DNA from: a bacterium UBA2219
GTDB lineage: Bacteria; Desulfobacterota; Deferrimicrobia; Deferrimicrobiales; Deferrimicrobiaceae
NCBI GenBank assembly: GCA_002327765.1
Contig: DCUH01000133.1
Coordinates: 58,885-122,884, forward strand
Direction: 5' to 3'
DNA length: 64,000 bases
Shown: in pieces, positions 18,379 to 62,080 of the stretch
How the letters are laid out: each line of letters begins with the position of its first letter
How positions within the stretch are numbered: the first letter of the stretch is position 1
Translations under genes and position numbers: made by a program
Notes under the pieces: model-generated
Told to the model about the DNA's origin: nothing
What the model saw: only the letters and a program-made list of their open reading frames with translations
Databases searched by the model: none

Positions 18379-18603
18379 CTCCCCGGCTCCTTCGGCATCG
18401 CGTGGCATCCGCCCGTCGCCGGGCGCGCGACGGGGCCGGCCCCGCTCCGCCATGCAGCCCCGCTCCCCTTGCCCGTTTCCGCCGCTTCCGGTACTATCCC
18501 CATGCAGCGGAATCCGGTGCGCCGGGCTGCGGGAGACGTCGCATCGGGCAGCGATGCCCACGACGCCGACGATGCCGTCGACGCGGAAAGCGGGGAGCGG
18601 TCC

Positions 18604-19098
18604 TTGGAACCGAAATGGTACTTGGTCAAGACGAAGGCCCTGAACGAGAACCGGGTGGTCACTCGCCTCCTCGGCGCCGGGTACGAAGTCCTTTTCCCCA
18701 AGATCCGGAAGAAGTCGCGGCGCCACAAGGGCGTCTTCGACGTCCGGCCCCTCTTTCCCACGTATCTCTTCGTCCTTTTCCGCGGGGACGAGCTCAAGAC
18801 CATCAAGTACACCCACGGCGTCGCCCGCGTCATCTGCTTCGGCCTGGAGCCCCAGGAGGTCGATGAAGAGATCATCGTCGCGATCCGGGAGCGGATGGAC
18901 GCCGAAGGGTTCGTCAAGCTCGAGCCGAAGAAGGTCGAACTCGCCCCCGGCCAGAAGGTCAAGATCGGCGAAGGCCCCTTCGCGGGGCTCGACGCCATCT
19001 TCCTCGAGGAGCTTCCCGACCGCGAGCGCGTAGTCCTGCTCCTCGACGCCGTCTCCAGCTATAAGCTGACGATCGGGAAGAGCGACCTGGAGACGTAG
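18604..19098 (+). CDS. NusG-paralog transcription antiterminator (RfaH/UpxY/LoaP-like; NGN + KOW)
   Basis: MEPKWYLVKTKALNENRVVTRL... NGN domain and a C-terminal KOW (GQKVKIGEGPFAGLDAIF). Start chosen at TTG 18604, with a GGGGAG RBS 6 nt upstream. The ORF-track ATG at 18469 would add 45 non-conserved residues. Confidence 0.75.
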   Translation: MEPKWYLVKTKALNENRVVTRLLGAGYEVLFPKIRKKSRRHKGVFDVRPLFPTYLFVLFRGDELKTIKYTHGVARVICFGLEPQEVDEEIIVAIRERMDAEGFVKLEPKKVELAPGQKVKIGEGPFAGLDAIFLEELPDRERVVLLLDAVSSYKLTIGKSDLET

Positions 19099-19238
19099 GC
19101 CCCCTCCGGCTGCGGGCCGGAACACCCCAAAAAAACAGAAAGAACAGCCCCCGGAGGTTGATATGATCAGGGGTACTGTCGCGTCCGGAGAAAATCATCC
19201 TGAACGCCACGGGGGGATCATTTGCCGCTCCCCTTATG

Positions 19239-19250
19239 GGCGGTAGCTTG
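19239..19250 (+). promoter_or_regulatory. ops-like element GGCGGTAGCTTG (consensus GGCGGTAGnnTG) in the leader of the polysaccharide operon
   Basis: Exact match to the 12-nt operon-polarity-suppressor consensus. It lies on the non-template strand, 140 nt downstream of the NusG-paralog gene and 125 nt upstream of the first export gene. Confidence 0.35.
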
Positions 19251-19373
19251 CCCGCCGGCCCGGCAACGCTCTTGTGATCGGAAGCGAAATTGGTAAACTG
19301 GCCCGAACAGCTTGTAAAGCGCCATGAAATAAGGAAAAGGGCGCCCTTCCGGAAGCAGAGGAGGACGAATCTC

Positions 19374-22300
19374 TTGCGGTTCCTGCCCCGCCATCTCTGT
19401 CCCCGTTCTGGTGAAGAACTCATCAACGTCCCGGTTCTGTGGGTCGCTCTCCTTCTCGCGCTCCTCCTGGTGCTTTCTGCGGGCGGGCCCGCCGGCGCGG
19501 CGGAGCCGCTCTCCTCCGGGGTCACTCCCGAGCAGGCGGCCGCGATGCGGCAGCTCGTAGGGTCCGACCCCGAGGCGGCGAAGGCGGTGGAGGAAACGCT
19601 CCGGAGGAAGGCGGAAGAAGCGGAAGGCGGGGGCGGGAGCGCGGCCGGGACGGCGGGCGAGGCGGAAAAGAGGGACCTCTTCGGGGGAAAAGCCGCGCCC
19701 GAAGGGTCGGAGGCCCGGGCCGCGCGGATCGCGGCGGAGCCGCGGTACGACTGGACGAAGTCCACCTACGTCGGCGGGCTCTTCGGGAAGCGACTCACCG
19801 CCCGGGAGCGGGAGACGCTGCCCCATTTCGGGCACGACCTGTTCGCCTTCTCCTCCGTGACGCTGCAACCTCATGAAAACCTGCCGGTTTCGCCGGGATA
19901 CGTCGTCGGGCCGGGCGACGAGATCGTGGTGCGGATGTGGGGGCGCGTCGAGGGGACGCAGCGCATGGTGGTCGACCGCGACGGGAAGATCTTCTTCCCG
20001 AAGTTCGGCTCCCTCTACGTGGCCGGGAAGACCTTCGACGAGGTGCGGGCCTTCCTCATGGGGAAGGTCCAGACGATCGCCGAGGTCAGCTCCGACGTCG
20101 GCCTGGGGCAGATGAAGGGGATCCGCGTCTCCGCGATGGGCGAGGTGCGCTTCCCGGGGTGGTACAGCGTCAGCTCGCTCCACACGGCGATGCAGGCGCT
20201 CTCCGCCGCCGGGGGGATCAAGGACATCGGCTCGCTGCGCCGGATCCTGATCCGGCGCGGGGGAGGCGTGGCCGGGGAGGTCGACCTGTACGATTTCCTC
20301 CTCAAAGGGGACACGCGCGGGGACATCCACCTGCTGCAGGGCGACGTCGTCTTCGTCCCGGTCGTGGGGAAGCTCGCGGCGGTCGCGGGGGAGGTCCGCC
20401 GCCCCGCCATCTACGAGCTGAAGGGGGAGCGGTCGCTGCTCGACCTGATCCGCCTCGCGGGCGGGTTCACCCCGGCGGCCTACAAGCGGCGCGTCCAGGT
20501 GGAGCGGCTCGAGGGGAACACCGCGCGCGTGGTCTTCGACGCCGACGCCGACGCGCTGGAAAAGGGCGGGCACGGCTTCGAGCCGGCCGACGGCGACTTG
20601 GTGCGCGTCTTCCCGATCGTCCTGGCCGAGGAAAACGCGGTCCGTGTCGAGGGGAACGTCCAGCGCCCCGGCCGGTACGAGATGAAGAAGGGCATGACGG
20701 TGGGATCCCTCTTCAAGGGGGAGAAGGAGTTCCTGCCCGACACGTATTTCGACTACGCGCTGATAACCCGCCTCGTGCCTCCCGACCTGCGCAAGGAGGT
20801 CGTCCCGGTCAACCTGCGCGAGATCGTGCTGGAGCGCAAGCCCGGCTCGGACGTGCCCCTCAAATCCCGCGACACGCTGCGGGTGTTCCGCAGGAGCGAG
20901 TTCCGGGACTACCCGAGGGCGTCCATCTCCGGGGAGGTGCGGCTGGTGCGGGCGGGGCTGCTCAAGGAACCGGGGCTCGACAACCAGGCGGAGGAGAGGT
21001 TGCTCCGGGACGAGGCGGGCGGGGAACGGCTCGACGGTCAGGCGTCAGGGCGGGAAGCGGAGCGGCGCGCTGCCGCGTTCCCGGGCGCGGACGGCCTGCG
21101 CTCCGGCATGCGCCCCGTGGATTCCGTCGCCGCCGCCGATCTCCGCGATCGGGAGTTGCGCCGGATGGATCCGCGCAGGGCGGATCCGCCCGACCGGATG
21201 CTCCCCGACAGGGAACGGGACGCCCGCGGCGCGGCGCCCCGGGACGCGAACGGCCGCGACGCCAACCGGCGCGACCCGTCGGCCCGCGAAAGGGCGCTTC
21301 GGGACGCGGCCGACCGCGGCATGGACACCCGCGCCGAGGAGATCCTGAAGGCGGAGGAGCGCGGGGCGGACGTCCGCGACGTGGACGCCCCCAGGGCGGA
21401 GTCCCCCTTCTGGCGCGACGCGGTCTCCTTCGAGATCCACGGCGGGACGCGGGTGGCCGACCTCGTCCGGATGGCGGGCGGCCTCACCCGCATGGCGCAC
21501 CTCGATCGCGCCGAGATCGTCCGCGTGGACGAGAACCGCAACTACCGGACGATCTACTTCCACCTGGGCAAGGCGGTCGCCGGCGACCCGCAGGAGAACA
21601 GGCTCCTGGAAAACGAGGACCAGGTCCGCATCCACTCGGTGCTGGAGATGTCGTCCCGCAAGACGGTGTCCGTCTCGGGCGAGGTGAACCTGCCGGGCGA
21701 CTTCGTCCTCACGGAAGGGATGAAGCTGTCCGACCTGCTGTTCAAGGCCGGCGGTTTCCGGGAGAGCGCCTACCGGAGGGAGGCCGAGCTGGTGCGCCGG
21801 GAGGTCAACGTCCAGGGCGACCTCGTCAAGACGCAGGCGGTGGTCGTCTATCCCGACCGCGCGCTGTCGGGCGACAACACGGCGGACATCCCGTTGAAGG
21901 CCGACGACTACCTCTACGTCCGGCAGATCCCCGACTGGGGCGAGAAGATCGTCGTCACGCTGGCGGGGGAGTTCCGCTTCCCGGGGACCTACGCGGTGGC
22001 GAAAGGCGAGCGGATCAGCTCCGTGATCGAGCGGGCGGGCGGCTACACGACGGGCGCCTACGTGAAGGCCGGCGTCTTCACCCGCGTCTCCACCCGCGAG
22101 GCGCAGCAGCAGGCGATCGACCGGATGATCGAGGAGCTCGAGACCTCGATCGCGGAGAAGGGGCAGGAGGTGGGCGCCGCCCTCGACAAGGAGGACGTCG
22201 AGTCGAACCGGCAGCTTCTCGAGGCCCGAAGGAACCTCGTCTCCCAGCTGCGGAAGCTGAAGGCCCAGGGGCGGGTCATCGTGCGCCTTCGGGACCCCGA

Positions 22301-22715
22301 CGCGATGAAGGGGAGCAGCGACGACATCTTCCTGGAAGACGGCGACCGGCTCTACGTGCCGCAGAAGATGAACGTGGTGAACGTCGTGGGGAGGGTCTAC
22401 AACCCGACTGGCGTCGTCTACGACCCGGCGAACGACACCCTGGGCCATTACCTGAAGAGGGTCGGCGGGCCCGCGGGCAACGCGGACGAGGACAACATCT
22501 TTCTCCTGAAGGCGGACGGCTCGGTGGTGAGCCGCGCCAACGCCGACGGCAACTTCTTCACCGGCGGCTTCATGTCCTCGAAGGTGGAGCCGGGCGACTC
22601 CATCATCGTGCCGCAGAAGCTGTTCGAGGCCCGGGCGATGAAGGACGTGAAGGACCTCATCCAGATCATGTACCAGATCGCCGTGTCGGTAGGCGTGCTG
22701 GTGGTGGCGTTTTAG
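19374..22715 (+). CDS. Polysaccharide export protein, Wza/KpsD-like with Poly_export and multiple SLBB domains (paralog 1, about 1113 aa)
   Basis: Repeated SLBB-type modules (VVGPGDEIVVRMWGRVEG..., GEVRFPGWYSV..., GEVRRPAIYELKGERSLLDLIRLAGG..., GEFRFPGTYAVAKGERISSVIERAGG...). TTG start with an AGGAGGA RBS. Signal-like hydrophobic core WVALLLALLLVLSAGG. Contains an Arg/Asp-rich low-complexity insert of about 140 aa. Confidence 0.85.
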   Translation: MRFLPRHLCPRSGEELINVPVLWVALLLALLLVLSAGGPAGAAEPLSSGVTPEQAAAMRQLVGSDPEAAKAVEETLRRKAEEAEGGGGSAAGTAGEAEKRDLFGGKAAPEGSEARAARIAAEPRYDWTKSTYVGGLFGKRLTARERETLPHFGHDLFAFSSVTLQPHENLPVSPGYVVGPGDEIVVRMWGRVEGTQRMVVDRDGKIFFPKFGSLYVAGKTFDEVRAFLMGKVQTIAEVSSDVGLGQMKGIRVSAMGEVRFPGWYSVSSLHTAMQALSAAGGIKDIGSLRRILIRRGGGVAGEVDLYDFLLKGDTRGDIHLLQGDVVFVPVVGKLAAVAGEVRRPAIYELKGERSLLDLIRLAGGFTPAAYKRRVQVERLEGNTARVVFDADADALEKGGHGFEPADGDLVRVFPIVLAEENAVRVEGNVQRPGRYEMKKGMTVGSLFKGEKEFLPDTYFDYALITRLVPPDLRKEVVPVNLREIVLERKPGSDVPLKSRDTLRVFRRSEFRDYPRASISGEVRLVRAGLLKEPGLDNQAEERLLRDEAGGERLDGQASGREAERRAAAFPGADGLRSGMRPVDSVAAADLRDRELRRMDPRRADPPDRMLPDRERDARGAAPRDANGRDANRRDPSARERALRDAADRGMDTRAEEILKAEERGADVRDVDAPRAESPFWRDAVSFEIHGGTRVADLVRMAGGLTRMAHLDRAEIVRVDENRNYRTIYFHLGKAVAGDPQENRLLENEDQVRIHSVLEMSSRKTVSVSGEVNLPGDFVLTEGMKLSDLLFKAGGFRESAYRREAELVRREVNVQGDLVKTQAVVVYPDRALSGDNTADIPLKADDYLYVRQIPDWGEKIVVTLAGEFRFPGTYAVAKGERISSVIERAGGYTTGAYVKAGVFTRVSTREAQQQAIDRMIEELETSIAEKGQEVGAALDKEDVESNRQLLEARRNLVSQLRKLKAQGRVIVRLRDPDAMKGSSDDIFLEDGDRLYVPQKMNVVNVVGRVYNPTGVVYDPANDTLGHYLKRVGGPAGNADEDNIFLLKADGSVVSRANADGNFFTGGFMSSKVEPGDSIIVPQKLFEARAMKDVKDLIQIMYQIAVSVGVLVVAF
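19392..19443 (+). repeat. Copy C of the ~50-nt repeat family, overlapping the 5' end of the first export gene
   Basis: CATCTCTGTCCCCGTTCTGGTGAAGAACTCATCAACGTCCCGGTTCTGTGGG. Confidence 0.6.
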
Positions 22716-22724
22716 GGAGACGGG

Positions 22725-23612
22725 ATGAAAATGAAATCCACTCCGTATCCCGTTGGGGATGAAATCACCGTGGGAGATCTCCTGGAGAGACTGCGCGGCA
22801 ACTGGTTGAAGATCGTCCTGCTGTCGGCGGCGGCGGGAATCTTGACGTACATCGTGTTGCTTGCGAAGCCGAATGTCTACCGGACGACGGCCGTCATCGC
22901 TCCCGCTGTCGAGGAAAAGAGGACGAACTCGACCATCGGGGCGCTCGCATCGATCGGCATGGAGATTGGAAGTCCGAACAGGCTGGAAGATCTGGAGACC
23001 CTCTTCAAGAGCAAAGATCTCTCCGTGCGTGTGTTCGGGAAGCACGACCTCTGGTCGATCGTGCTCGGAGACCGGTTCAATCACGCAACGGGTAAGATCC
23101 GGGGCCGATGGACGGACCTGACGGAGAAGGGGGGAAGATCGCCTTCGGAATGGGATGCCATACGCACAGCGGAGAAGCGGCTGACCATATCCATCAACAA
23201 GAGGAGCGGCACGCTTTCCGTTTCGTTCGATGCGCCCTCCCCGGAAGGGTCCGCGAAAATCGTGGGGTATTACCTCGATGAAGGGAAAAGTCGATTACAG
23301 GAAGAGGCGCTGGGGCGCGCGATCATGAACAAGAAGTTCATCGAGGAGCAGATAGCGAAAACCCACGATGCGTTGACGCGTGACCGGCTCTATTCCCTGT
23401 ACAGCCAGGAGGTCGAGCGGGAGATGATGGGGCGGAACCGGGAGCAGTTCGGGTTCCGGATCATCGACACGCCACGTGTTCCGGACAGGAAGGTGCATCC
23501 CGGGAAGGTGTCCGCGGTTATCGCGGCCTATTGCATCGTCTTCTTCATAGGGTGCGTGTTTTTCGCCCTTCGTGGGAACGGGAGGGGGCGGGGAACGGAA
23601 GTACCGAGGTAG
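22725..23612 (+). CDS. Polysaccharide co-polymerase / chain-length determinant (Wzz-like; no kinase domain)
   Basis: N-terminal TM (WLKIVLLSAAAGILTYIVLL), a periplasmic coiled region, and a C-terminal TM (VSAVIAAYCIVFFIGCVFFAL). 295 aa. Confidence 0.75.
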   Translation: MKMKSTPYPVGDEITVGDLLERLRGNWLKIVLLSAAAGILTYIVLLAKPNVYRTTAVIAPAVEEKRTNSTIGALASIGMEIGSPNRLEDLETLFKSKDLSVRVFGKHDLWSIVLGDRFNHATGKIRGRWTDLTEKGGRSPSEWDAIRTAEKRLTISINKRSGTLSVSFDAPSPEGSAKIVGYYLDEGKSRLQEEALGRAIMNKKFIEEQIAKTHDALTRDRLYSLYSQEVEREMMGRNREQFGFRIIDTPRVPDRKVHPGKVSAVIAAYCIVFFIGCVFFALRGNGRGRGTEVPR

Positions 23613-23651
23613 CCATAAGGCCGCTACCTCGCGGAATCCCGGTTTCTGCGC

Positions 23652-24917
23652 GTGGGGAAAGATCTCTATATGTACCACGCATTGAACGCCAGCCAAGTGG
23701 CGTTGGGCGTGGTTTTCCATTTCCTCCTCGCGAGGCGGTTCGGGGCGGGGGCGGAAACGGATGTGTTTTTCCTGTCAGCCGTCGTCATAGGATTCCTTTC
23801 CCTAATAGGATCGCTTTTTTCGGAGATGTTCCTCCAGCACTACTGCAAGCTGCTGGCCCGGGATACCGGGAACGCGGAGGAATTCTACCAGGCGGCATTT
23901 ACTCATTCCATCCTTCTCGGCGCGATCAGCATCGCTTTCGGTAACTCGTTTTTCCACCTGATAACGGGGCTGTTTGCTCCTGGTTTTGATGATGGCCGGG
24001 CTTCGCTTTTCCGTGATTTCTTTTTTCTTCACAGCGGGACCTTGTTGCTTTCCCGCGCAGTCGGTTTGAACAATTCACTTCTGAACGCCCACATGCGATT
24101 CTTTCTCCCGTATTTCCTGTCCGTCGTCCTTCAAGCGATAAACATCATCTTCCTGGTCGCTTTTTCCGACCGTTGGGGAATCCGCGCGCTGGCGGCAGGA
24201 TCGGTCACCGGGGTCCTGGTTTCCTTCGGGATACAGGCGCTGGCTGTCCCGCGCCTAGTCGGCGTCCGGATGAGGATCCGCCTGTGGCATCCCTCTATAC
24301 GGCCCATGGCGGCGAGCAGCGTGTCTCTGCGTCTCGGGTACCAGGTCTGGGGTCTCAGGGATCTCATCACCGCGAATGTACTTTCCAGGCTCCCCGCCGG
24401 ATCCGTCAGCGAATTTTTCTATGCGATGAGGATCGTCTCCATCTTGTTTACCGTTACCAGCTCCCCGATCCTCCAGATCTTCCAATCGAAGGCGTCCCAC
24501 CTTGCTGCCGAGGAGAGGGCAAAGGACATCCTCCCGTTGGCGCGTCAGGCGATCCTGAAAAACGTTCTGTTGTTCTCCGCGGCCGCCCTGGTCACGGCCG
24601 TTCTCCTTCCGGAGGCGCTTCATCGTCTGTTCCGGGAGGCGATGAGCCCGGATTCGATGGATTCCATCTATTATCTGTTCCTGGCGTTCGTTCCCGTGTA
24701 CGTAATTATGGCCGTCGAGGCGCCCTACCTCCAGACGGTGATCGCCATGGTGCGCGGCGACGTAGTATTCTGGATCTCCACCGTCTTCATCACGGTTTAT
24801 TTCTTGGGAGTCCAGGCGATGGGAGTCTCTCGGGGTCCGTTCGGCCTCGTTGTGAGCATGGCGGTGGCGCAGGCGGTGAATCTCCTTTTGTATGCCCGTT
24901 TCGTCGAGCAACGGTAA
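23652..24917 (+). CDS. MOP-superfamily polysaccharide flippase (Wzx-like)
   Basis: 421 aa with about 12 predicted TM helices and polysaccharide biosynthesis protein topology. Confidence 0.75.
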   Translation: MGKDLYMYHALNASQVALGVVFHFLLARRFGAGAETDVFFLSAVVIGFLSLIGSLFSEMFLQHYCKLLARDTGNAEEFYQAAFTHSILLGAISIAFGNSFFHLITGLFAPGFDDGRASLFRDFFFLHSGTLLLSRAVGLNNSLLNAHMRFFLPYFLSVVLQAINIIFLVAFSDRWGIRALAAGSVTGVLVSFGIQALAVPRLVGVRMRIRLWHPSIRPMAASSVSLRLGYQVWGLRDLITANVLSRLPAGSVSEFFYAMRIVSILFTVTSSPILQIFQSKASHLAAEERAKDILPLARQAILKNVLLFSAAALVTAVLLPEALHRLFREAMSPDSMDSIYYLFLAFVPVYVIMAVEAPYLQTVIAMVRGDVVFWISTVFITVYFLGVQAMGVSRGPFGLVVSMAVAQAVNLLLYARFVEQR

Positions 24918-25860
24918 TGCCGTCTCCTTTCATCAGCGTCGTCATCAACTCGTATAACTACGCCGAATTCGTCGCGCAGGCAGTCCAAAGCGTCCTTGCC
25001 CAGCGGTTCCCGCCGTCCGACCGGGAGATCTTGATGATTGATGACGGTTCTTCGGACGGCACAGGGAAGGTGATGGCGGCATATGCGGGCAGCGTACGGT
25101 ACATACGGAAGGAAAACGGGGGCCAGGCTCTGCATTGAACCTGGGCTCGGCAATGGCTCGCTGGGAGATCGTCTGCCTGCTGGATGCGGACAACTGGTTC
25201 TACACCGACAAGCTTGCGGCCGTGGCCGAAAAATTCCGCCGCGAGCCGGAAACCGGGGTCGTCTACAACCGGTTCGATATCATCGACAAGGACGGGTTGA
25301 TCCGGCATGCCGCCGTTCCCCGTCGGCTCATCGAGGGCGATTTGTCGGCGCTCGTTCGAATCTGGCGTGCGCCGGGTTCACCTACTTCCGGGATATCGGT
25401 CCGCCGCGAGATCTTGAAGAGGATTCCGGTCCCCGAATCATCGTTCCGAATCTGCGCGGACTCCTTCTTCCCGGTTATCCTCCCCCTCGTCGCAAACGTC
25501 GGCGTCCTCAATGAAACGTTGCACGCATACCGGGTCCACGACCGAAACGGCTACCTTGGTAAAGCGGAAGAGCAGCGATTGGAAATCCACAGGGTTCAAT
25601 GGAATGTCTTGCAAAGATACGCGACAGATCTCGGCTACCCGTTGTTCGACGCGTTCAGGACAATCGAAAGGGCGCGAGGATTTCAGGAACGAAAGGAGAA
25701 TTTCTTTCGGGGAGCGAGGTTCCTCAAGGCGATGGAAGGGTCCCGCGGGCTTCGGGCATGGACTTTCGCGAAGCTCGTGCTTGCCACCATCTTCCCGCCG
25801 GATGGTGTTTCCTTCCTTCGTCGTTTCCGCCAGCGGATGAGTAGGGAATCAGGATTTTGA
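24917..25860 (+). pseudogene. GT2 glycosyltransferase disrupted by a -1 frameshift in a G5 tract (25118-25122)
   Basis: Frame A gives MPSPFISVVINSYNYAEFVAQAVQSVLAQRFPPSDREILMIDDGSSDGTGKV...ENGGQALH*. The -1 frame continues as NLGSAMARWEIVCLLDADNWF...(DAD motif). Adding one G would restore a contiguous ENGGPGSALNLGSAMARWEIVCLLDADN GT2 core. Confidence 0.7.
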
Positions 25861-25878
25861 ACGGATATCGATAAGGCA

Positions 25879-27174
25879 ATGACCAATATCCGACCGGTAG
25901 CCATCGCGGGGCGGCAGAGGGTCCACGGACTGGCGCTTCCCTGCTTGTACCAGCTGGAAATTCTGGATATCGCCGCCTTCCTCGTGCCCGTCACGCGGTT
26001 CATCGAAATCAGCCTGGTCGGGAGGCTCTTCCTGACGGATGTGCTGCTGGCGTGCATCCTCCTCCTGCTGTTGCCGGCCCGAGGGAAACGGCTTCGCGAG
26101 CGTCTTCCGTTGACGTTCCTTCTGCTGGCGCTTCTCTGGTTATCTGGGCAGCTGGCGGCGGACATTGTCCGGCAGGCGGAATTTCGGGATTATGCAAGGG
26201 GATGGTCGAAGATCCTGTTCACCATGATCAATTTCAGCGCGCTTTATCTGATGCTGGTCGGGAACAGGCGCCGCCTGATTCTGTACGCCGGCGGCTTGGC
26301 GGCAGGAGGGCTGGCGACGTATCTCTTCAACCCGAGCGTCTTCGCCGAAGGCCTGCCGTGGAAATTCGGATACGGGGAGTCCGTCACCTGGCTGATGGCG
26401 CTGTTAGCGACATTGCTTGCCGTCAACGGAAAAACCGGCCTGTATGCCGCGTGCACGGTCCTGGCGTCTTCTGCGGTCCTGAACCTGTCGATGGGCTTCC
26501 GAAGCCTTGGCGGAATCTGCTTCTTGTCATCCTGTTACCTGTTCCTCCTGGCTCGCTGGGGGGATGGGCTTGCAAAAGGGGGCGGTCTGCGAAGAATCCT
26601 GGTCGTCGGGGGGGCGCTGGCAATTTCCGGAGCGCTCGTTTATGCGGCATACGGACACGCGGCCCGCTCCGGATGGCTCGGCGAAAACGAACTGGGGAAA
26701 TTCGAGTCTCAGCTCTTGGGGAAGTACGGATTACTGCTCGGGGGTCGCGGCGAGGTGCTTGCGGCCGGCCGGGCCATCTACGATTCGCCGCTGCTAGGTC
26801 ATGGATCGTGGGCGAAGAATTACGATTATTCGTATTTTTATTATGAGCTGATGCGGCGGTCGGGCTATGTCGTGGAGGGGGAGGTCGAGGATGGACTGAT
26901 CCCCTCTCATTCCCACCTGCTGGGGGCGTGGGTCGAGGCTGGATTGGCGGGAGCCTTGTTCTGGATTTGGGTCCTGAGTCTTCCTGCTCGCGTAATGTTC
27001 GGTGTGTACGGAAAGGTGTTCCGATTGGCGCCGTTGGCGGTGCTCTTTGCCTTATTGTTGATCTGGGATGTGCTCTTTTCCCCGTATGGGGCGGCGCAGC
27101 GCTTTGTGACGCCATACTATGTCGTTTTCATGATGAGTTGCTTGTGTGTGAAGCATCCGGGAGGGGTGGATTGA
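25879..27174 (+). CDS. O-antigen ligase/polymerase-family membrane protein (Wzy-like)
   Basis: 431 aa with about 10-12 TM helices and a large periplasmic loop, as in Wzy_C/O-antigen ligase proteins. Lies in the cluster next to the flippase. Confidence 0.6.
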   Translation: MTNIRPVAIAGRQRVHGLALPCLYQLEILDIAAFLVPVTRFIEISLVGRLFLTDVLLACILLLLLPARGKRLRERLPLTFLLLALLWLSGQLAADIVRQAEFRDYARGWSKILFTMINFSALYLMLVGNRRRLILYAGGLAAGGLATYLFNPSVFAEGLPWKFGYGESVTWLMALLATLLAVNGKTGLYAACTVLASSAVLNLSMGFRSLGGICFLSSCYLFLLARWGDGLAKGGGLRRILVVGGALAISGALVYAAYGHAARSGWLGENELGKFESQLLGKYGLLLGGRGEVLAAGRAIYDSPLLGHGSWAKNYDYSYFYYELMRRSGYVVEGEVEDGLIPSHSHLLGAWVEAGLAGALFWIWVLSLPARVMFGVYGKVFRLAPLAVLFALLLIWDVLFSPYGAAQRFVTPYYVVFMMSCLCVKHPGGVD

Positions 27175-27953
27175 AATTTTCAATAGTCACGTTGTCATTC
27201 AATCAGGGGAAATTTCTGGAAGAAGCGATCCTTTCCGTCATTCGACAGGATTATCCTGATATTGAATATATAATTGTGGACCCTGGATCCACGGATGGAA
27301 GCAGAGAAATAATAGAAAAATACAGAAGGAGTATTGCAAAGATCATATTCGAGGAGGACAACGGGCCTGCAGACGGCTTAAACAAAGGATTCCGGGCTGC
27401 GAAAGGAGATATTCTCGGATATATCAATGCCGATGATTATTACGAGCCCGCCGCTTTCACGCATGTTGCCGAAATATTTAAAAACAAACAGGATGTTGCT
27501 GTCGTTAATGGGGCGATCAGGATCGTTGACGGCCGTGGGCGGGCGAAATGGCGTAGGCGGATGTCCGACGCATTCGACCTGGAAAATTTCGCGGAAGGAA
27601 TGTGCTGGGTCGGCCAACAAGCCACATTTTTCCGGAAGACCGTTTTTGGCAACCCGGTAACGTTCAACTCGGGAAACAGGACCTGCTGGGATGCGGAATT
27701 TCTTGTGGACCTGGCATTAAATGGTTGCTTGTTTCACCGGCATCCAAAAGTATTGGGAAATTTCCGGGTCCATGAAGGATCGATCACCGGGTCGGGGCGT
27801 TTAGAGTCGCTCTATCGACAGGATATCGATCGAATCCGGAAAATCATTAGCAGGAGTATAACTAGACGGCGCCCCGGATACGTCAATGCCCTGTTGCGCG
27901 TGATGTACAAGTTCGACATCCGGCGCCAATTCATGAACTACACCGTCAGATGA
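27171..27953 (+). CDS. Glycosyltransferase family 2
   Basis: KFSIVTLSFNQGKFLEEAILSVIRQDYPDIEYIIVDPGSTDGS...INADDYY (DxD). TTG start overlapping the upstream stop (gaTTGAaa). Confidence 0.8.
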   Translation: MKFSIVTLSFNQGKFLEEAILSVIRQDYPDIEYIIVDPGSTDGSREIIEKYRRSIAKIIFEEDNGPADGLNKGFRAAKGDILGYINADDYYEPAAFTHVAEIFKNKQDVAVVNGAIRIVDGRGRAKWRRRMSDAFDLENFAEGMCWVGQQATFFRKTVFGNPVTFNSGNRTCWDAEFLVDLALNGCLFHRHPKVLGNFRVHEGSITGSGRLESLYRQDIDRIRKIISRSITRRRPGYVNALLRVMYKFDIRRQFMNYTVR

Positions 27954-27964
27954 AGGAAAGGTCC

Positions 27965-29020
27965 ATGAGGATTACCGTCCTATGGGCCAGCCTGGCCAGT
28001 TATTCCTGCGCGTTCTTCCGGGAGATTGCGAATCTTGGATGTCCTTTGCAGATTGTGTATCAGCCCGTGGATGAGGAGGCTCCGTACCAGGGATTCGACC
28101 TTTCTTTCTGCACGGCGGCAATGGAAGATTTCAAGGACACAAAAGCCCGGTTGGATTCAATGGTTTCGGATTTCCGTCCCGATTGCATACTGATGTCGAC
28201 CTGGTGTTACCCCCATTTCAGGAAATTGGCGAGAGCTGTTCGCAAAAAAGGTGTTTACGTGGTATCCGCAATGGACAACCAATGGCATGGGAGCTTACGG
28301 CAGCATATCGGAGTCTTGTCGTCACGGTTTTTTTTGAAACCCTGCATCGATACGTTTTTCTTGCCAGGAGACCGCCAGGCCTATTTTGCCCGGAAACTCG
28401 GGTATGGGAAGGTGATTTACGGATTCGGCGCCACAGACGTACGCCAATATTCCAGTGCGATACCGATCACGAGGCGTCCGGGAAATTTTCTTTTTTTCGG
28501 AAGGCTCCTTCCGATAAAGGGGGTCAGAGAACTCATCGACGCCTATGCGATATATCGAAAAGCGGTAAAGGAGCCATGGGGCTTGAAGGTGGTGGGGAAG
28601 GGGCCCATGGACTGACTGTTACGATAGGTGGAGGGGGTGGATGCTCTCGGATTCGTCCAGTCGGCGGAAATCCCTTCGGTTATGAACGAGGCCCAGTGCC
28701 TTGTCCTGCCGAGTCGATTGGAGAATTGGGGCGTGGTGATCCAAGAGGCGGGGGTAGCAGGTTTGCCTGTGATTACGACGGATGCCTGCGGCGCGGTGTC
28801 GACGTTCGTTCGGGACGGGATAAACGGATATATCGACCCCGTTGACAGGGACTATTTGGCGCAGGCCATGGTACGGATGACGGAATTGAGCCGACCGAAA
28901 CTGGAGGAAATGTCCGCGGCTGGTTGCCGGCTGGCCCGGATTTCAGATGTACGGATGGTAGCCGAATATTTTTTGGACACCGTCCGGATCATGATCAGAT
29001 CGAAGCGGCATCATCGATGA
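27965..29020 (+). pseudogene. GT4 (GT-B) glycosyltransferase interrupted by two in-frame stop codons (TGA 28613-28615, TAG 28625-28627)
   Basis: The N-terminal half ends ...FFGRLLPIKGVRELIDAYAIYRKAVKEPWGLKVVGKGPMD*. The same frame then reads LLR* VEGVDALGFVQSAEIPSVMNEAQCLVLPSRLENWGVVIQEAGVAGLPVITTD... Across the break this is a collinear GT4 C-domain (xVGxGP...LG...V.F.G.V....L......L.LPS...E.FG.V..EA...G.PVI) with no length change. Confidence 0.65.
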
Positions 29021-30162
29021 ACATAGCATATTTGACAACTTCTGATCCGTTAGACATTTCTGGCTGGTCTGGGCTGAACACATATATCTTGAGGACGCTT
29101 CAGGGAAGCGGTTTCCGAGTTGCGCCTATAGGGAATCTCAAGAAAAAGATAAACCCGCAGAATGTTCTGAAAGCATTCTGGTACAGGAAGATAGCGTCCA
29201 GTTCATATATCTTGGAACAGGATCCTGCCGTATTGAAATATTATGCCAGCCAAATCGAGAGTCGGCTTTCATCAATTCAATATGATTTGATTTTCAGTCC
29301 CAGCACGATTCCCATTGCCTATCTGGATACAAAAAAGCCGATAGTATTTTGGACGGATGCGACTTTTGCTGGGATGATTAATTATTATCCTTATCCATTT
29401 TCAGGTTTGTGTGCTGAAAGCATAAAGAATGGAAATGATATGGAACAGAGGGCTCTATCTAAATGTCGTATTGCTATATACAGCTCAGACTGGGCCGCAG
29501 ACACCGCAATAAAATGCTATGATGTGGATCCTATAAAAGTTAAGGTTGTCCCATTTGGCGCAAATGTTGAGTGCAATAGAAGCATTGATGATATTGAGGA
29601 TATGCTGAGGAAAAAGAATTTAGATATTTGTAAATTGCTATTCGTAGGGGTGGATTGGGGAAGGAAAGGAGGGGTTTTTGCGTTGGAGGTGGCTGAATTA
29701 TTGAATTGCCGAGGCATTCCAACAGAATTGCACGTGATTGGTTGCGATCCTAAAATTAAGATTCCTAAGTTTGTAAAGAAGCATGGGTTTATTTCCAAAA
29801 GGACTAAATCAGGAGAAATATGTTTTGATCAGTTGATGGCCGAATCGCATTTTTTGATTTTGCCTGCACGAGCGGAGTGTTGTGCAGTTGTCCTTGCCGA
29901 GGCAAATTCTTTTGGGCTTCCCACTCTGGCTTCGAGAACAGGAGGAATACCTACGGTAATCCGGAACGGGAAAAACGGCCAGACATTCGATATGAGCGAA
30001 GGCCCCGAGGCATATTGTAAATATATCGAAAGCGTTTTTTCATCGAAACAGTTTTATCGTGAATTGGCGCTCGCTTCGTTCCACGAATATTCCGAAAGAT
30101 TGAACTGGTCCTCCGCAGGGCGAAAAGTTCATGATCTGATAAAAGAACACTGCCGCGGATAA
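29017..30162 (+). CDS. Glycosyltransferase family 4 (low GC, about 42%)
   Basis: MNIAYLTTSDPLDISGWSGLNTY... GT-B N-domain, and a C-domain with EANSFGLPTLASRTGGIPTVI (E-x7-E region). The ATG overlaps the upstream stop (cgATGAac). Confidence 0.8.
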   Translation: MNIAYLTTSDPLDISGWSGLNTYILRTLQGSGFRVAPIGNLKKKINPQNVLKAFWYRKIASSSYILEQDPAVLKYYASQIESRLSSIQYDLIFSPSTIPIAYLDTKKPIVFWTDATFAGMINYYPYPFSGLCAESIKNGNDMEQRALSKCRIAIYSSDWAADTAIKCYDVDPIKVKVVPFGANVECNRSIDDIEDMLRKKNLDICKLLFVGVDWGRKGGVFALEVAELLNCRGIPTELHVIGCDPKIKIPKFVKKHGFISKRTKSGEICFDQLMAESHFLILPARAECCAVVLAEANSFGLPTLASRTGGIPTVIRNGKNGQTFDMSEGPEAYCKYIESVFSSKQFYRELALASFHEYSERLNWSSAGRKVHDLIKEHCRG

Positions 30163-30175
30163 AGGTTTTCGCAAT

Positions 30176-31081
30176 ATGCCATTAGATATACCTGGTTCCG
30201 AATGTCCCATCTGCAGAAGTGGAACGATTAAGGCCAGTCTCCATTTCCCGTATTGTTATTGGCGGTGTGTGTCGTGTGGATCGTCTCATCTGCATCCTCA
30301 ACCGACCAATGAGGAACTGGAACGGTACTATGAGGTTTTTCATTTGCCTTCGGAAGCCGGCGGCATCTATGCCGATTTCGAAGACAGGGTTCAATCTGAT
30401 TTTTCTGTAAAAGCGGGAATCGTATCCCGCTTGTTGAAAAACAATGGCGGGCAAGACTTAGGCAATAAGCGTGTATTGGATGTGGGTTGTGGGAAAGGTT
30501 TTTTCGTCCGGGAACTCCTGAAATCAGGAATTTCCGTTGAAGGGATCGACCTGTCTTCGAGCGCAATTTCAGAAGGGAAAGAGGTACATGGAATCAGAGG
30601 ATTGCGTATTGGGCGGATAGAATATCAGGAGGATTGGTCAGAGCGATTCGATGCCGTAACGGCTTGGGCGACGTTGGAGCATCTTCCATCTCCCCAAGAT
30701 TTTCTGAATTCGGTCAGGAGGGTTCTGAAGCCTGATGGTTTACTTGTTTTCGATACGGGGTTGGCCGGAGACTATCTGGATCGGCATGCTCCGGGATTGA
30801 TCCAGTGGTACGACCCCCCGCAGCACCTGTTCGTCTTCAGTCTCGCGGGGCTCGAATTGCTGCTGAAACAATCCGGTTTTTCGATTATTTCCTGCGACAA
30901 AAATTTCGAAAGGACATCAGGCCGCCGCCTGTTGAAATACGTCAGGAACAAAATTCTTGTTACCGTGACCGCCGGCATCTTCCGTGCCGCCTTAGGAAAA
31001 AGGCAGTATCAAAGGATGCGGATGGAAAGCAAAATGCCTTACGGTTCATTGGTCATGATAGCGGCACGGCGCGTTTCTTAG
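30176..31081 (+). CDS. Class I SAM-dependent methyltransferase with N-terminal zinc ribbon
   Basis: CPICRSG...CVSCGS zinc ribbon, then motif I VLDVGCGKGFF and post-I/II motifs. 301 aa. Confidence 0.8.
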   Translation: MPLDIPGSECPICRSGTIKASLHFPYCYWRCVSCGSSHLHPQPTNEELERYYEVFHLPSEAGGIYADFEDRVQSDFSVKAGIVSRLLKNNGGQDLGNKRVLDVGCGKGFFVRELLKSGISVEGIDLSSSAISEGKEVHGIRGLRIGRIEYQEDWSERFDAVTAWATLEHLPSPQDFLNSVRRVLKPDGLLVFDTGLAGDYLDRHAPGLIQWYDPPQHLFVFSLAGLELLLKQSGFSIISCDKNFERTSGRRLLKYVRNKILVTVTAGIFRAALGKRQYQRMRMESKMPYGSLVMIAARRVS

Positions 31082-31083
31082 AC

Positions 31084-32256
31084 TTGAAGATCCTGCATGT
31101 CATTGCAAGTATCGCGTTGAGATATGGCGGCCCATCCAAGGCCTGCTTGGAAATGGCGCGCGCCCAGGTGGAACTTGGCAATGACGTCAGTATTTACACG
31201 ACAAATCAGGATGGGGCCGGCACCTTGGACGTGCCCACCTACCGCCCGGTTCTTCGGGAGGGAGTGGATATTAGATATTTCCCGATCCAGCACCCGAAAA
31301 GATGGGGAGCCTCCTTTCCGATGGCGATGGCTCTGAAGAAGAAAATTCCGGGCATCGATATCGTTCACATTCATACCCCTTATATGTTTCATACATTCAT
31401 AACAGCATCGCTATGCGATCGTTTTTCAATACCATATGTTTTAACTCCCCATGGCACGCTGGACCCCTATATCTACAACAGGCACAGACTGCGCAAGCGA
31501 ATCGCCGAATTACTTTTCCAGGACCGGATCACCCGGCGCGCATCCGCGATCCATTTCATCACGGAGGAAGAAAAGGCGCTGGCGGAGCCTTACATCCATG
31601 GCGCTCCAGGGTATGTGGTTCCGATCGGGTTGAGCGTCGAGGAATACTGCGGCCGGCCATCCAAAGGAATTCTTTTTACCCGGTTCCCGGAATTAAAAGG
31701 GAAGAAGATCATCCTTTTCCTGGGGAGGATCAATTTCATAAAAGGGCTGAACATCGTGGCGCGCGCGTTTGCCGCCGTCGCAAGGAAACGCGAGGATGTC
31801 CACCTTCTCATAGCCGGGCCTGACGACGATGGATACGGGGAAAAGGTCACCGGATGGCTGAAGGAGGAAGGTGTATTCGAAATGTCCACCTTCACCGGCA
31901 TGCTTCTCGGGGAGGAAAAGCTGGAGGCGTTCTACGGGTCCTCGGTTTTTGTCCTTCCGTCCTATTCCGAAAACTTCGGAATAGCGGTCCTGGAAGCCAT
32001 GGCGTGCGGGCTGCCCGTGATCGTTTCGGACAAGGTGAACCTGTGGCCTGAGATCATCGAGGCGAAAGCGGGCGAGGTCGCACCCTGCAATGCGGAAGCG
32101 TTTTCCCGGAAGATTCTGGCGGTCTTAGAAGATGATGATGCCGCCCGGAAAATGGGGATGAACGGCGCGGCGCTCGTGCGCGAAAGATATTCCTGGCCGG
32201 AAGTCGCCGCACGGATGATCGAGATGTATGCCTCGCTGGTCCCTCCAGATCCTTGA
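31084..32256 (+). CDS. Glycosyltransferase family 4
   Basis: LKILHVIASIALRYGG... N-domain, and a C-domain with FVLPSYSENFGIAVLEAMACGLPVIVSD. TTG start 3 nt after the upstream stop. Confidence 0.8.
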   Translation: MKILHVIASIALRYGGPSKACLEMARAQVELGNDVSIYTTNQDGAGTLDVPTYRPVLREGVDIRYFPIQHPKRWGASFPMAMALKKKIPGIDIVHIHTPYMFHTFITASLCDRFSIPYVLTPHGTLDPYIYNRHRLRKRIAELLFQDRITRRASAIHFITEEEKALAEPYIHGAPGYVVPIGLSVEEYCGRPSKGILFTRFPELKGKKIILFLGRINFIKGLNIVARAFAAVARKREDVHLLIAGPDDDGYGEKVTGWLKEEGVFEMSTFTGMLLGEEKLEAFYGSSVFVLPSYSENFGIAVLEAMACGLPVIVSDKVNLWPEIIEAKAGEVAPCNAEAFSRKILAVLEDDDAARKMGMNGAALVRERYSWPEVAARMIEMYASLVPPDP

Positions 32257-32466
32257 CATGGAGCCGCTCGGGATCGATTTTCCGGAAATGCCCGGCGCCA
32301 TCGGGGAGTTTCCTCCGTGCCCGGTCGGCGTGTCGTTCATGACCAGCCAGTATTCCTATGCGATGCAAAGCTTCGCCACCGTGCGCCTGCTTACTGGGTG
32401 CGACGACCGCAGCCAGCGGATTCAAGAAATATGTTTCTTTGCCACGTAGAATAAATATAGCGAAAT

Positions 32467-33363
32467 ATGAACATGAATGAATATAATGATATGTCTAACA
32501 TAAACTGTTGTATTTGTGGTTCAAAAGTTAGTTTATGGAACAAATTATCTTCGGGGGTCAATGTTTATTTTTTAATGTTGTGTAAAAGCTGTAGATTTGC
32601 TTTTGCATATCCAAGGCCGGAAGCATCTAGTTTATATGATTTATATTCAAAATCGAGTCAAGGTGTTTCTTGTTTAATTAAATATGATGACGTGATAGAT
32701 GAAGAAAAAAGAAATCCGAATTCCGTAATAGATGCTGAAAGAATGATTAGTAAAATAATAGATATGCTTTCGAAAAATAACATTTCGAGTAGAAAATTTT
32801 TAGAAGTCGGCAGTGGATACGGTTTTTTTTCGAAAAAAGCCATGGAAAAAGGGTTCGATGTGACAGCTATTGAACTTGCGGAAACAGAGCGGGCAATCAC
32901 AAAGAAGATGACTGGTTTGGATCCTGTTGCTGTTTCTTTTGAGGATTTTTCGGGAAGTTCCAAATTGTTCTCGTCAATTCTTATGAGCCAGGTGCTTGAG
33001 CATGCATTGGATGTGGATAAGTGGATCGGCAAGGCGTCATCGTTGCTTGTCCCGGGTGGGGTACTCGCTATCGCATTGCCGAATTTTGATAGTATTGTCC
33101 GGATTTTTCTTGGAACCAGAGACCCGTATATCTGTCCACCGATTCATTTGAACTATTTTACGAAAGAAAGTTTATCAAGGCTTCTGGCCAAGCATGGATT
33201 TGGAAACATATATTGCAATTTCGTCTATAGGATTAGCAAAGATGCCATTAACAGGCGTCTCTCTCCGTTGATAGGCCCTTTTATTCCAATAAAGAGTGTA
33301 TTGAGGTTGGCCTACAATTTTGGAGTTGGTATGTTTATAAACATGTACGCAGTAAAAATATAA
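32467..33363 (+). CDS. Class I SAM-dependent methyltransferase with N-terminal zinc ribbon (very low GC, about 37%)
   Basis: CCICGS...CKSCRF ribbon, motif I FLEVGSGYGFF, and the same overall layout as the 30176 and 34310 paralogs. Confidence 0.75.
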   Translation: MNMNEYNDMSNINCCICGSKVSLWNKLSSGVNVYFLMLCKSCRFAFAYPRPEASSLYDLYSKSSQGVSCLIKYDDVIDEEKRNPNSVIDAERMISKIIDMLSKNNISSRKFLEVGSGYGFFSKKAMEKGFDVTAIELAETERAITKKMTGLDPVAVSFEDFSGSSKLFSSILMSQVLEHALDVDKWIGKASSLLVPGGVLAIALPNFDSIVRIFLGTRDPYICPPIHLNYFTKESLSRLLAKHGFGNIYCNFVYRISKDAINRRLSPLIGPFIPIKSVLRLAYNFGVGMFINMYAVKI

Positions 33364-33429
33364 ACGAGTTGTTTCCAAATACGACTATTTTTATTATCTG
33401 AAACGGTAGCATGTCCGATGATGCGTTAA

Positions 33430-34320
33430 ATGACTGAGTTGCCTGAAAAGATCCCCGTCTCCGTCCTCGTCCCGACCCGGAACGAGGAATCGAACTTGGA
33501 AGCGTGCCTGTCCTGCCTGAAGCCGTTCGGCGAGGTGATCGTATACGATTCCTTGAGCACCGACCGCACGGTCGAGATCGCCGAAAAACACGGCGCGACG
33601 GTGGTCAGGAGGGAATTCGACAATTTCGCCGCGCACAAGAACTGGGCGCTGGAGAACATCCCGTTCCGCCACGAGTGGATCCTGATGGTCGACGCCGACG
33701 AGCGGGTCGGAAGCGGGCTGGCAGAGGAGATCGAGCGGGTCGTGTCGCGGAACGATCCGGCCTTCGACGGCTATTTCGTGGCGCTGAAGTACATGTTCGC
33801 GGGGAAGTGGATGCGTCATGGAGGATGGTATCCCGGCTGGCAGCTGCGCCTGTTCCGCCAGGGACGGGTTCGGTACGAATCGCGGCTGGTGCACGCGCAC
33901 GCGATGCTCGAAGGGAACTCCGGCCGCCTGGGGAACGATCTGCTGCACGAGGATTACAAGGGGATCGAGCGGTATTTCGACCGGCATAACGCCTATTCGA
34001 GCATGGAGGCGGTCGAGGTTTACCGTGCTTTGGCATCGCAGGCGGCTCCTTCCGGGCAGATCGAGCCCTCGCTCTTCTCTACGGGGCCCAAACGCCGGCG
34101 GTACCTGAAATCGCTGGCGTACCGGTACCTGCCGTTCCGCCCGCTCTTCAAGTTCCTGTGGCTGTACGTGTTCCGGGGCGGGTTCCTCGACGGCCGGATC
34201 GGCTTCCGGTTCTGCCTGCTTCACACGTTCTACGAGTACCAGGTCAGTCTGAAGATCGAGGAGCTGCGCGATCCCGGTTCGCCGCTGCGAAGGAAGTACC
34301 GGGAGTACCTTGACGGCTGA
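33430..34320 (+). CDS. Glycosyltransferase family 2
   Basis: VSVLVPTRNEESNLEACLSCL...VIVYDSLSTDRT...MVDADE (DxD). 296 aa. Confidence 0.8.
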   Translation: MTELPEKIPVSVLVPTRNEESNLEACLSCLKPFGEVIVYDSLSTDRTVEIAEKHGATVVRREFDNFAAHKNWALENIPFRHEWILMVDADERVGSGLAEEIERVVSRNDPAFDGYFVALKYMFAGKWMRHGGWYPGWQLRLFRQGRVRYESRLVHAHAMLEGNSGRLGNDLLHEDYKGIERYFDRHNAYSSMEAVEVYRALASQAAPSGQIEPSLFSTGPKRRRYLKSLAYRYLPFRPLFKFLWLYVFRGGFLDGRIGFRFCLLHTFYEYQVSLKIEELRDPGSPLRRKYREYLDG

Positions 34321-35266
34321 CCGTCTTCCGTCGAATGGCCGCACCCGGTGCCTCGATTGCGGCGGCCCACTCGCCGTTCAGGAGTCCGGCCTCTTCGACA
34401 CGCGTTTCGGCGTTCCCGGCGATTACTCCTTCGCCGTCTGCGGCGCGTGTGGCCTGGAGCAGCTGACGCCGCGCCCCTCGCAGGAAGAGCTCGACCGCCT
34501 CTACGCCTCCCATTACAACTTCGGGGGGGAGCGGGGCACCGCCTACACGTCCGCCCGGCTCCGGTTCCACGGTTCCCGGCTCTACCGCCTCTGGACCCGG
34601 ATCGACGGGGATGTCTTCTTCCACGGCGTGAAGGGGAGCGGGCGGCTGCTGGACGTCGGCTGCAACGAGGGGCGCGGCCTCCTCTTCTATCGGGGCAACG
34701 GATGGGAGGCGGAAGGGCTGGAGCCGAACGCGGGCGCGGCGGCGGCGGCGCGGGGCCTGGGCTTCCCGGTTCACGCCATGCCGCTGCGGAACTTCCTGCC
34801 GGAAAAACCGTACGACGTCGTCGTCCTGTCGAACGTCCTGGAGCACTCGCAGGACCCCAGGGGGATGCTCGAACGGGTGCGCGGCATCCTCGCCCCCGGC
34901 GGCCGGTTGTGGGTCAGCGTGCCCGACGGCGACAGCGTCCTCCGGGGCGTGTTCGGCCGCTCCTGGATCAACTGGCACGTGCCGTTCCACGTCGTGCTCT
35001 TCACGCGGCGCACGCTGGGGCGGCTGCTGGAGGAGACGGGCTTCCGCGTCGAGTCCGCCCGGCGGGAGACTCCGGCCCTGTGGGCCGCGCAGTCGCTGGT
35101 CGCCGCGGCGTTCGCGCGGCCCGGGGCACCCACGCGGCAGTTGCGCAACCCTCTGCTCGTCGGTCCTCTCATCGTGGGCATCCGGGCGTTCCTCTTCCCG
35201 CTTCTGTGGCTGGCCAACCGGTCCGGCCGGGGCGACTGCCTCGTGGTCGAGGCGGCGCGCGACTGA
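34310..35266 (+). CDS. Class I SAM-dependent methyltransferase with N-terminal zinc ribbon (high GC)
   Basis: CLDCGG...CGACGL ribbon, motif I LLDVGCNEGRGL, and the same architecture as the 30176 and 32467 genes. Confidence 0.75.
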   Translation: MTADRLPSNGRTRCLDCGGPLAVQESGLFDTRFGVPGDYSFAVCGACGLEQLTPRPSQEELDRLYASHYNFGGERGTAYTSARLRFHGSRLYRLWTRIDGDVFFHGVKGSGRLLDVGCNEGRGLLFYRGNGWEAEGLEPNAGAAAAARGLGFPVHAMPLRNFLPEKPYDVVVLSNVLEHSQDPRGMLERVRGILAPGGRLWVSVPDGDSVLRGVFGRSWINWHVPFHVVLFTRRTLGRLLEETGFRVESARRETPALWAAQSLVAAAFARPGAPTRQLRNPLLVGPLIVGIRAFLFPLLWLANRSGRGDCLVVEAARD

Positions 35267-36501
35267 TGCGCGTCCTGGTCTGCGGCATGAATTACGCCCC
35301 CGAGCCGGTGGGGATCGGCAGGTACACCGCGGAGATGGCCGAATGGCTGGCCGCGCGGGGCCACGAAGTGCGGGTCGTGGCGGCGCCGCCGCATTACCCG
35401 GCGTGGAAGGTCGGGGCGGGATACCGGGGCTGGGCGTACAAGAGGGAGATGATCCGCGGGGTCGACGTGCTCCGCTGCCCCTTGTGGGTCCCCGGGAACC
35501 CGGAGCGGCCCACCCGCCTTTTCCATTTCCTGTCATTCGCCGTTTCCAGCTTCCCGGCCGTGCTGGCCCAGGCGTTCTGGCGCCCGGACGTGGTGTTCGC
35601 GGTCGAGCCGACGCTCTTCTGCGCACCCGGGGCGTTGGCGGCGGCGCGCCTTTCGGGAGCACGGGCGTGGCTGCACGTCCAGGATTTCGAGGTGGAGGCG
35701 TTCTTCGGCCTGGGCTTCGCGCCGGGAGGCCCGGTGAAGCGATGGGTCGCGGCGGTCGAGGGGTGGCTGACGCGCCGGTTCGACACGGTCTCGACCATCT
35801 CCCGGCGGATGAGCGACCGGCTTTCCGCGCTCGGGGTGGACGGGTCCCGCGCGGCGCTGTTCCCGAACTGGGTGGACACGGAGCGGGTCCGGCCGGGCGC
35901 CGGCGGGCGAGATTTCCGCAAGGAGTGGGGGCTTGCGCCCGGAAGCCGGATCGTCCTGTACGCCGGCAGCATGGGAAGGAAGCAGGGGCTGGAACTGGTC
36001 CTGGAGGCCGCGGCGGCGGTCAAGGAAGAGTGCCCGGAAGCCGTCTTCCTGATGGTGGGCGACGGCTCGGCGAAGAACGACCTCGAGAGGACGGCCGGCG
36101 GGATGGGCTTGCGGAACGTCCTGTTCAAGCCGCCGCAGCCGGAGGAGGACTTCCCCGCGCTGCTTTCGTCCGCGGACGTCCACCTGGTCGTCCAGAAGAA
36201 AGGGGTCGCCGACGCGTTCATGCCGTCGAAGCTGACCGGCATCCTGGCGGCGGGGGGGACGGCGGTCGTCACGGCGGACGCCGATTCCGAGCCCGGCCGC
36301 CTGGCGGCGGAGCATCCGGGCATCTTCCTCCTCGTGCCCCCGGAGGATCCCGCGTCGTTCCGCGAGGCGCTGCGGTCGGCGCTGTCGGGGGCCGGCGCAG
36401 GAGGGAACCGGGTTGCCCGGGAGTACGCGGAAAAGATTTTGTCCAAAGATATTGTGTTGGCGGAATTTGAGGGTATGCTTTTCTCTGGGAAGAAGTCCTG
36501 A
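35266..36501 (+). CDS. GT4 glycosyltransferase, WcaI-like
   Basis: MRVLVCGMNYAPEPVGIGRYTAEMAEWLAARGHEVRVV... N-terminus typical of WcaI-type GT4, plus a C-terminal GT-B nucleotide-binding domain. Confidence 0.8.
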   Translation: MRVLVCGMNYAPEPVGIGRYTAEMAEWLAARGHEVRVVAAPPHYPAWKVGAGYRGWAYKREMIRGVDVLRCPLWVPGNPERPTRLFHFLSFAVSSFPAVLAQAFWRPDVVFAVEPTLFCAPGALAAARLSGARAWLHVQDFEVEAFFGLGFAPGGPVKRWVAAVEGWLTRRFDTVSTISRRMSDRLSALGVDGSRAALFPNWVDTERVRPGAGGRDFRKEWGLAPGSRIVLYAGSMGRKQGLELVLEAAAAVKEECPEAVFLMVGDGSAKNDLERTAGGMGLRNVLFKPPQPEEDFPALLSSADVHLVVQKKGVADAFMPSKLTGILAAGGTAVVTADADSEPGRLAAEHPGIFLLVPPEDPASFREALRSALSGAGAGGNRVAREYAEKILSKDIVLAEFEGMLFSGKKS

Positions 36502-44550: not shown

Positions 44551-44574
44551 GAGGCATCGACACGGGAGCGTAGA

Positions 44575-45717: not shown

Positions 45718-45793
45718 CCGGGGAAGATCCCCTTCCCATGCCGCCGGAACGGGAAGGAAGGCCGGCCTCCGCTCCGCGCCGGGTGCCCCTCCC

Positions 45794-62039: not shown

Positions 62040-62080
62040 CCGGTCGCGGATCCCGGCGACGCGGGCGGAGAGGGCCGGCG

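Follow-up and report, generated by a model that had tools for sequence, protein, structure and literature searches.

The GT2 glycosyltransferase gene at positions 24917-25860 (forward strand) of the window, the whole 64-kb stretch of DNA that was analysed here, has very probably been inactivated by a genuine and recent deletion of one base. As judged from the sequence, the gene would have encoded an enzyme that adds one sugar to an undecaprenyl-linked repeat unit, and its inactivation would form part of a wider loss of transferases in the same locus. Codon comparison with orthologues assigns the missing base to the third position of an alanine codon between 25128 and 25129 (ancestral ENGG-QASA-LNLG), and the G5 run nearby is an incidental bystander made up of the Gly-Gly codons of an NGG motif. 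As the deletion lies beside, and not within, the G run, the gene would be an ordinary inactivated gene and not an on/off switch.

Two halves of one GT2 domain

The ATG at 24917, which overlaps the TAA stop of the MurJ-type flippase gene upstream, opens a frame that reads MPSPFISVVINSYNY...RYIRKENGGQALH and has the tail ...YIRKENGGQALH (RKENGGQALH) ahead of a premature TGA at 25136-25138. This N-terminal remnant (24917-25138, forward strand; 73 codons) carries the DDGS nucleotide-binding motif, D42 D43 G44 S45 in the repaired GT2, and the NGG motif. The -1 frame is open from 25045 to 25860, reads ...PGSALNLGSAMARWEIVCLLDADN... and ...PGSALNLGSAMARWEIVCLLDADNWFY..., and closes with a stop at 25858-25860. 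From 25129 to 25860 (forward strand) it holds the remainder of the enzyme, S72 to F314, with W83 (25162-25164), the DXD motif D90-A91-D92 (25183-25191) and N93 (25192-25194). The D90-A91-D92 triplet of the repaired protein aligned with the DSD of chondroitin synthase 2z87.

In a Pfam scan the N-terminal piece matched profile positions 1-66 of PF00535 (53.9 bits) and the C-terminal piece positions 70-166, and the frame-repaired protein matched positions 1-165 of 168 without a break (104.1 bits, cut-off 23.3). Together the two pieces form one GT2 domain (PF00535, GT-A fold), cut at profile positions 66/70, and the claim of the earlier note that a GT2 gene is here split over two frames was borne out. 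The one uninterrupted ORF of GT2 family members is interrupted in the window by TGA 25136-25138, the rest lying in the -1 frame. The GC3 frame signal displayed a frame switch at about 25100-25126, with coding periodicity kept on both sides of the break. For annotation purposes, the ORFs 24917-25138 and 25135/25153-25860 belong together as a single GT2 pseudogene; gene callers differed in the start of the C-terminal piece, which was set at TTG 25135 in Logan (241 aa) and at ATG 25153 in NCBI (235 aa). With regard to sugar specificity, no NCBIfam equivalog reached its cut-off in the NCBIfam scan.

Intact, single-ORF orthologues of the gene were found in contigs L003 (315 aa; product P0002) and L085 (320 aa; product P0003), so that the comparison with orthologues proposed in the earlier note speaks against the two halves being genuinely separate genes. 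Contig L003 has the same order as the window, Wzz-MurJ-GT2-next gene, with 73% nucleotide identity over 3.99 kb, and the frame in the window is thus disrupted relative to an intact orthologue in conserved order. A search of 5.8 billion protein clusters returned homologues but no intact and near-identical GT2 allele, and a GTDB genome scan with the close-homologue alignment returned only distant GT2s (at most 41% identity over comparable coverage) and no close orthologue. Searching JGI metagenome contigs for intact or variant alleles, using exact flanks with a gap of 14-20 nt allowed, gave 0 matches, the collection evidently being without the strain. Exact-product look-ups for P0001, P0124 and the C-terminal piece of the GT4 gene described below gave no match, because the gene callers had picked different starts.

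Position of the missing base

The earlier note had located the frameshift inside the G5 homopolymer at 25118-25122 (forward strand). Adding one G to GGGGG does restore the GT2 core, giving ENGGPGSALNLG..., exactly as was claimed. The location itself was not borne out, since codon alignment and the profile score of the QASA repair both put the gap after 25128. To map the lesion, every single-base insertion between 25112 and 25136 was enumerated. The GGQASA family motif (ENGGQASALNLGS) was obtained only by insertion at 25127-25129, and insertion in the G run yielded the PGSA version of the earlier reader, ENGGPGSALNLGS. The junction-spanning sequences of the restored frames are ENGGPGSALNLG or ENGGQASALNLG, and the corresponding junction peptides ENGGPGSALNLGSAMAR or ENGGQASALNLGSAMAR. 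At the break, the closest homologues P0002 (68% identity), P0003 (44%), P0005 and P0007 read RKENGGQASA(V/F/L)N(L/M)G and P0004 reads QENQGQAAAINKA, GGQA(S/A)A being present in 5/5 of the closest homologues.

The same placement emerged from the codons. Those of L003 are AAC GGG GGG CAG GCA TCC GCG GTG AAC, those of the window AAC GGG GGC CAG GC- TCT GCA TTG AAC, and those of L085 AAC GGC GGG CAA GCG TCT GCC TTC AAC. Nucleotide mismatches relative to L003 numbered 4 with the gap after GC (25128) and 7 with any gap within the G run. A profile built from the five closest homologues favoured the QASA repair (427.3 bits) over the PGSA repair (418.6 bits) by 8.7 bits. On the wide 104-sequence profile the two repairs were just 1.3 bits apart, because proline and glycine are present there in distant members. 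A PGSA repair accepted on protein plausibility was rejected, as the codon alignment and the close-homologue profile discriminate against it. Thus, at 25128-25129 (forward strand), the third base of the alanine codon appears to have been lost from an ancestral CAG GCN TCT, at a non-repetitive site with no repeat tract, 6-7 nt downstream of the G run. In the codon alignment with L003 and L085, the G5 run itself keeps its native register and spans the two glycine codons (GGG GGC) of the conserved NGG motif. What is corrected here is the role of the neighbouring homopolymer, a bystander, and the lesson for method is that a homopolymer beside a frameshift is no proof of its cause; it is the codon-level comparison with orthologues that decides.

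Reality of the lesion and probable decay of the locus

The truncated 73-aa product is recorded without any difference in three contigs, namely the 144,627-bp NCBI/ENA contig, from which the window presumably stems, L001 (the Logan assembly of SRR5323303, 6,204 bp) and L002 (JGI 3300001580, 4,145 bp). Across the site, L001 and L002 each match the window at 100.000% identity. The JGI 3300001580 assembly was made from Illumina data of Suncor tailings pond 6, sample 2012TP6_6 (PMC5029510), and matching of the SRA and ENA accessions to the literature returned the JGI sample only. A further contig, ENA ERZ27315071 (L084), is 100% identical to the window over 25798-28295 and ends short of the site. 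At window position 28803, a single C/T difference was observed relative to position 2212 of L086, another Logan contig of SRR5323303, at 22 nt from the contig end. Being one base off the window, L086 is no copy of the same consensus, and the difference suggests strain-level polymorphism in the population.

These contigs bear on the alternative that the frameshift is a sequencing or assembly error and that the true genome carries an intact gene, which had been allowed for in the earlier note and which we consider very unlikely. Contigs of metagenome-assembled genomes can carry consensus indels, and the GT2 is otherwise perfectly preserved. The lesion recurs in L001 and L002 and is hence reproducible, but these assemblies may share one read set; the four assemblies may likewise come from overlapping read sets, making a systematic artefact, or intact alleles at low frequency, conceivable, and on account of this possible overlap a slim chance is left for assembly error. 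Against it, the missing base lies outside any homopolymer, at least one dataset is Illumina, and the window contig, JGI and Logan assemblies that span the site agree exactly while stemming from different pipelines. Moreover, one SNP separates L086 from the window, so that L086 represents another consensus, and the second broken gene nearby was disabled by substitutions, which are untypical of indel artefacts. An error-prone assembly with widespread frameshifts was also rejected, as the GC3 frame plot and Pfam coverage gave ordinary gene boundaries elsewhere.

Having been broken, the gene seems to have changed little. No further stop was found in the downstream -1 frame up to 25858-25860, and this, together with the retained GC3 signal and the good preservation of the GT2, makes the frameshift look recent. 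Two unusual residues were considered as a sign of long decay. The residue directly after the DXD motif, N93, is Asp in 104/104 homologues, and W83 is Gly in 84/104 and Trp in none. In the alignment with SpsA, TDDN stands against the DADN of the window, so Asn has precedent. Over the conserved columns the window protein was no outlier, with 22-43% of the family deviating as much (80-95% thresholds). Thus, N93 and W83 were rejected as a decisive sign of long decay, the protein being no outlier overall and SpsA having Asn at the equivalent position.

The GT2 gene belongs to a polysaccharide biosynthesis and export locus that was delineated by Pfam and NCBIfam scans at 18469-37227 (forward strand). 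At its head is an RfaH/UpxY-like antiterminator, a NusG paralogue (18469-19095, forward strand), whose presence suggests operon-specific antitermination. It is followed by a Wza-like exporter of 1,141 aa (19290-22715, forward strand), which is unusually long, with multiple SLBB domains and a long central low-complexity insert rich in Arg, Asp and Ala. Next come Wzz (22725-23612), the MurJ-type flippase (23652-24917), the broken GT2 and a multi-pass membrane protein that gave no family match (25879-27174). Further downstream, the locus encodes an additional GT2 along with three intact GT4s, one more GT2 and three methyltransferases. Its initiating polyprenyl-phosphate sugar transferase is encoded at 36502-37224, after which a second Wzi/Wza/Wzz/flippase set follows. 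This second export and assembly set (40607-47329, forward strand) comprises Wzi, an 835-aa Wza-like exporter, Wzz/GNVR and a flippase-like protein, and a YjbH-family exopolysaccharide protein is encoded at 59886-63005 on the reverse strand; more than one surface-polysaccharide pathway is therefore encoded in the window. Over about 26-34 kb, the glycosyltransferase/methyltransferase core, GC content is 0.48-0.55, down from about 0.65-0.70, a low-GC block that is consistent with lateral acquisition. Judged by MetE similarity, the host of the locus is an uncultured deltaproteobacterium, its best named matches being Deltaproteobacteria and Thermodesulfobacteriota MAGs with about 79% identity.

A second transferase of the locus is disabled as well. 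The GT4 glycosyltransferase gene at 27950-29020 (forward strand) contains two nonsense codons, TGA at 28613-28615 and TAG at 28625-28627, in a gapless alignment to intact homologues of 345-357 aa. Both stops fall on sense residues of the homologues (GPMD*LLR*VEGV versus GPLAELLRGVAGV), and both are also present in the Logan contig L086. It is odd that they lie 12 nt (four codons) apart in a gene that is otherwise well kept, with its conserved residues, and they may have arisen from a single multi-nucleotide event. This GT4 should be annotated as a further pseudogene. The locus as a whole carries three disabling lesions in two transferases, other genes appearing intact by domain coverage, which would indicate a recent loss of two or more sugar-adding steps.

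The other suggestion of the earlier note, that of a decaying gene, is thus supported by the intact syntenic copies in L003 and L085, by the same broken allele in L001 and L002, and by the neighbouring GT4 with its two nonsense codons. The loss-of-function allele appears to be fixed in the sampled population. We propose that loss of a single nucleotide from the GT2 (GT-A) gene of a Wzx/Wzy-type surface-polysaccharide locus would cause translation from ATG 24917 to stop after 73 residues, leaving the remaining 243 codons, including those of the DXD motif, out of frame. The GT2 enzyme activity would be lost, and either the repeat unit would be short of one sugar or the pathway would be shut down. 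Surface-glycan loci commonly lose transferases, and the cause may be pressure from phage or predation, or relaxed selection within the community of the tailings pond; a selected loss, for example an escape from phage for which the glycan is the receptor, and neutral decay are both possible.

Switching, recoding and comparison with known systems

Phase variation, whereby slipped-strand mispairing in the G5 run would toggle the gene between OFF (G5) and ON (G6), was the other reading put forward in the earlier note, and is highly improbable. Phase-variable loci typically have tracts of 8 or more G/C exactly at the length change, and ON/OFF variants occur within populations. One more G in the run reopens the frame in the window, and the resulting residues P70 and G71 are found in 29/104 and 12/104 family members, respectively, making a G5 to G6 reversion conceivable. 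However, the ancestral lesion is outside the G run, and no hypermutable simple repeat was found at the frame change (GC^TCT, 25128/25129). Five G is a short run, and runs of at least five G number 135 in the window. Neither is the run kept as a tract in the orthologues, being G6 in frame in L003 and interrupted, GGCGGG, in L085. Its length is identical in all three assemblies that cover the site, and no ON allele was found in the protein database. With no repeat at the lesion, the run in native register and no length variant among assemblies, a phase-variable gene is not supported. A slip from G5 to G6 would reopen the frame at the cost of two tolerated substitutions and could therefore serve for reversion, but the run gives no sign in these sequences of acting as a switch. 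An idea we regard as the least probable of all is that rare +1 slippage in G5, at the level of DNA, RNA or the ribosome, restores the ENGG-PG-SALNLG variant and thereby a low-frequency ON state; if true, G5 slippage would give an environmental deltaproteobacterium a compensatory 'second-site' switch for a surface-glycan transferase, next to the original deletion. The phase-variable glycosyltransferases of Neisseria, Haemophilus, Campylobacter and Helicobacter are of the same class, that of surface-glycan transferases, and the window likewise has a G run close to its frame change. In contrast to those loci, the run in the window is a G5 in native register, the indel is outside it and no variants were seen.

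It is similarly improbable that an active enzyme is still made from the broken gene, whether by -1 frameshifting or transcriptional slippage at C GGG GGC, or by restart at TTG 25135 and assembly of the pieces. The -1 frame is open throughout the overlap at 25045-25138, the TGA stop overlaps the TTG as TTGA (25135-25138), and the G5 run 12 nt upstream could mimic a Shine-Dalgarno sequence, so that a restart at TTG 25135 is conceivable from the sequence. Set against this, no slippery X_XXY_YYZ heptamer was found in the overlap at 25045-25138, and no stimulatory RNA structure in the downstream 90 nt, where the MFE was -28.5 kcal/mol and the shuffle mean -28.9 (z = +0.13). The split falls within the GT-A nucleotide-binding fold, at Pfam positions 66/70, and off any domain boundary; as the orthologues are single ORFs, the split arrangement is not conserved. 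A natural split enzyme of the Alg13/Alg14 type was rejected, the break being inside a single GT2 domain and the orthologues unsplit. Programmed -1 frameshifting was rejected likewise, in that neither heptamer nor structure was found and L003 and L085 are unshifted. The dnaX gene and the transposases of IS elements are examples of programmed -1 ribosomal frameshifting, and as in those cases two overlapping frames serve one protein in the window. Unlike them, the GT2 is without a slippery heptamer and without a downstream stimulatory structure, and the shift is not conserved.

The closest resemblance to the GT2 gene, read as a genuine loss of function through one deleted base, is found in the frameshift pseudogenes of O-antigen and EPS loci, which it matches in having a single-base indel inside a GT2 catalytic domain, intact syntenic orthologues, and a further disabled transferase in the locus. 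Glycosyltransferase pseudogenes with a frameshift are an already known and common kind of feature in surface-glycan loci, and the importance of the present case beyond annotation is small. Compared with the O-antigen and EPS pseudogenes nothing essential differs, the host here being an uncultured deltaproteobacterium of oil-sands tailings and not a studied pathogen or isolate.
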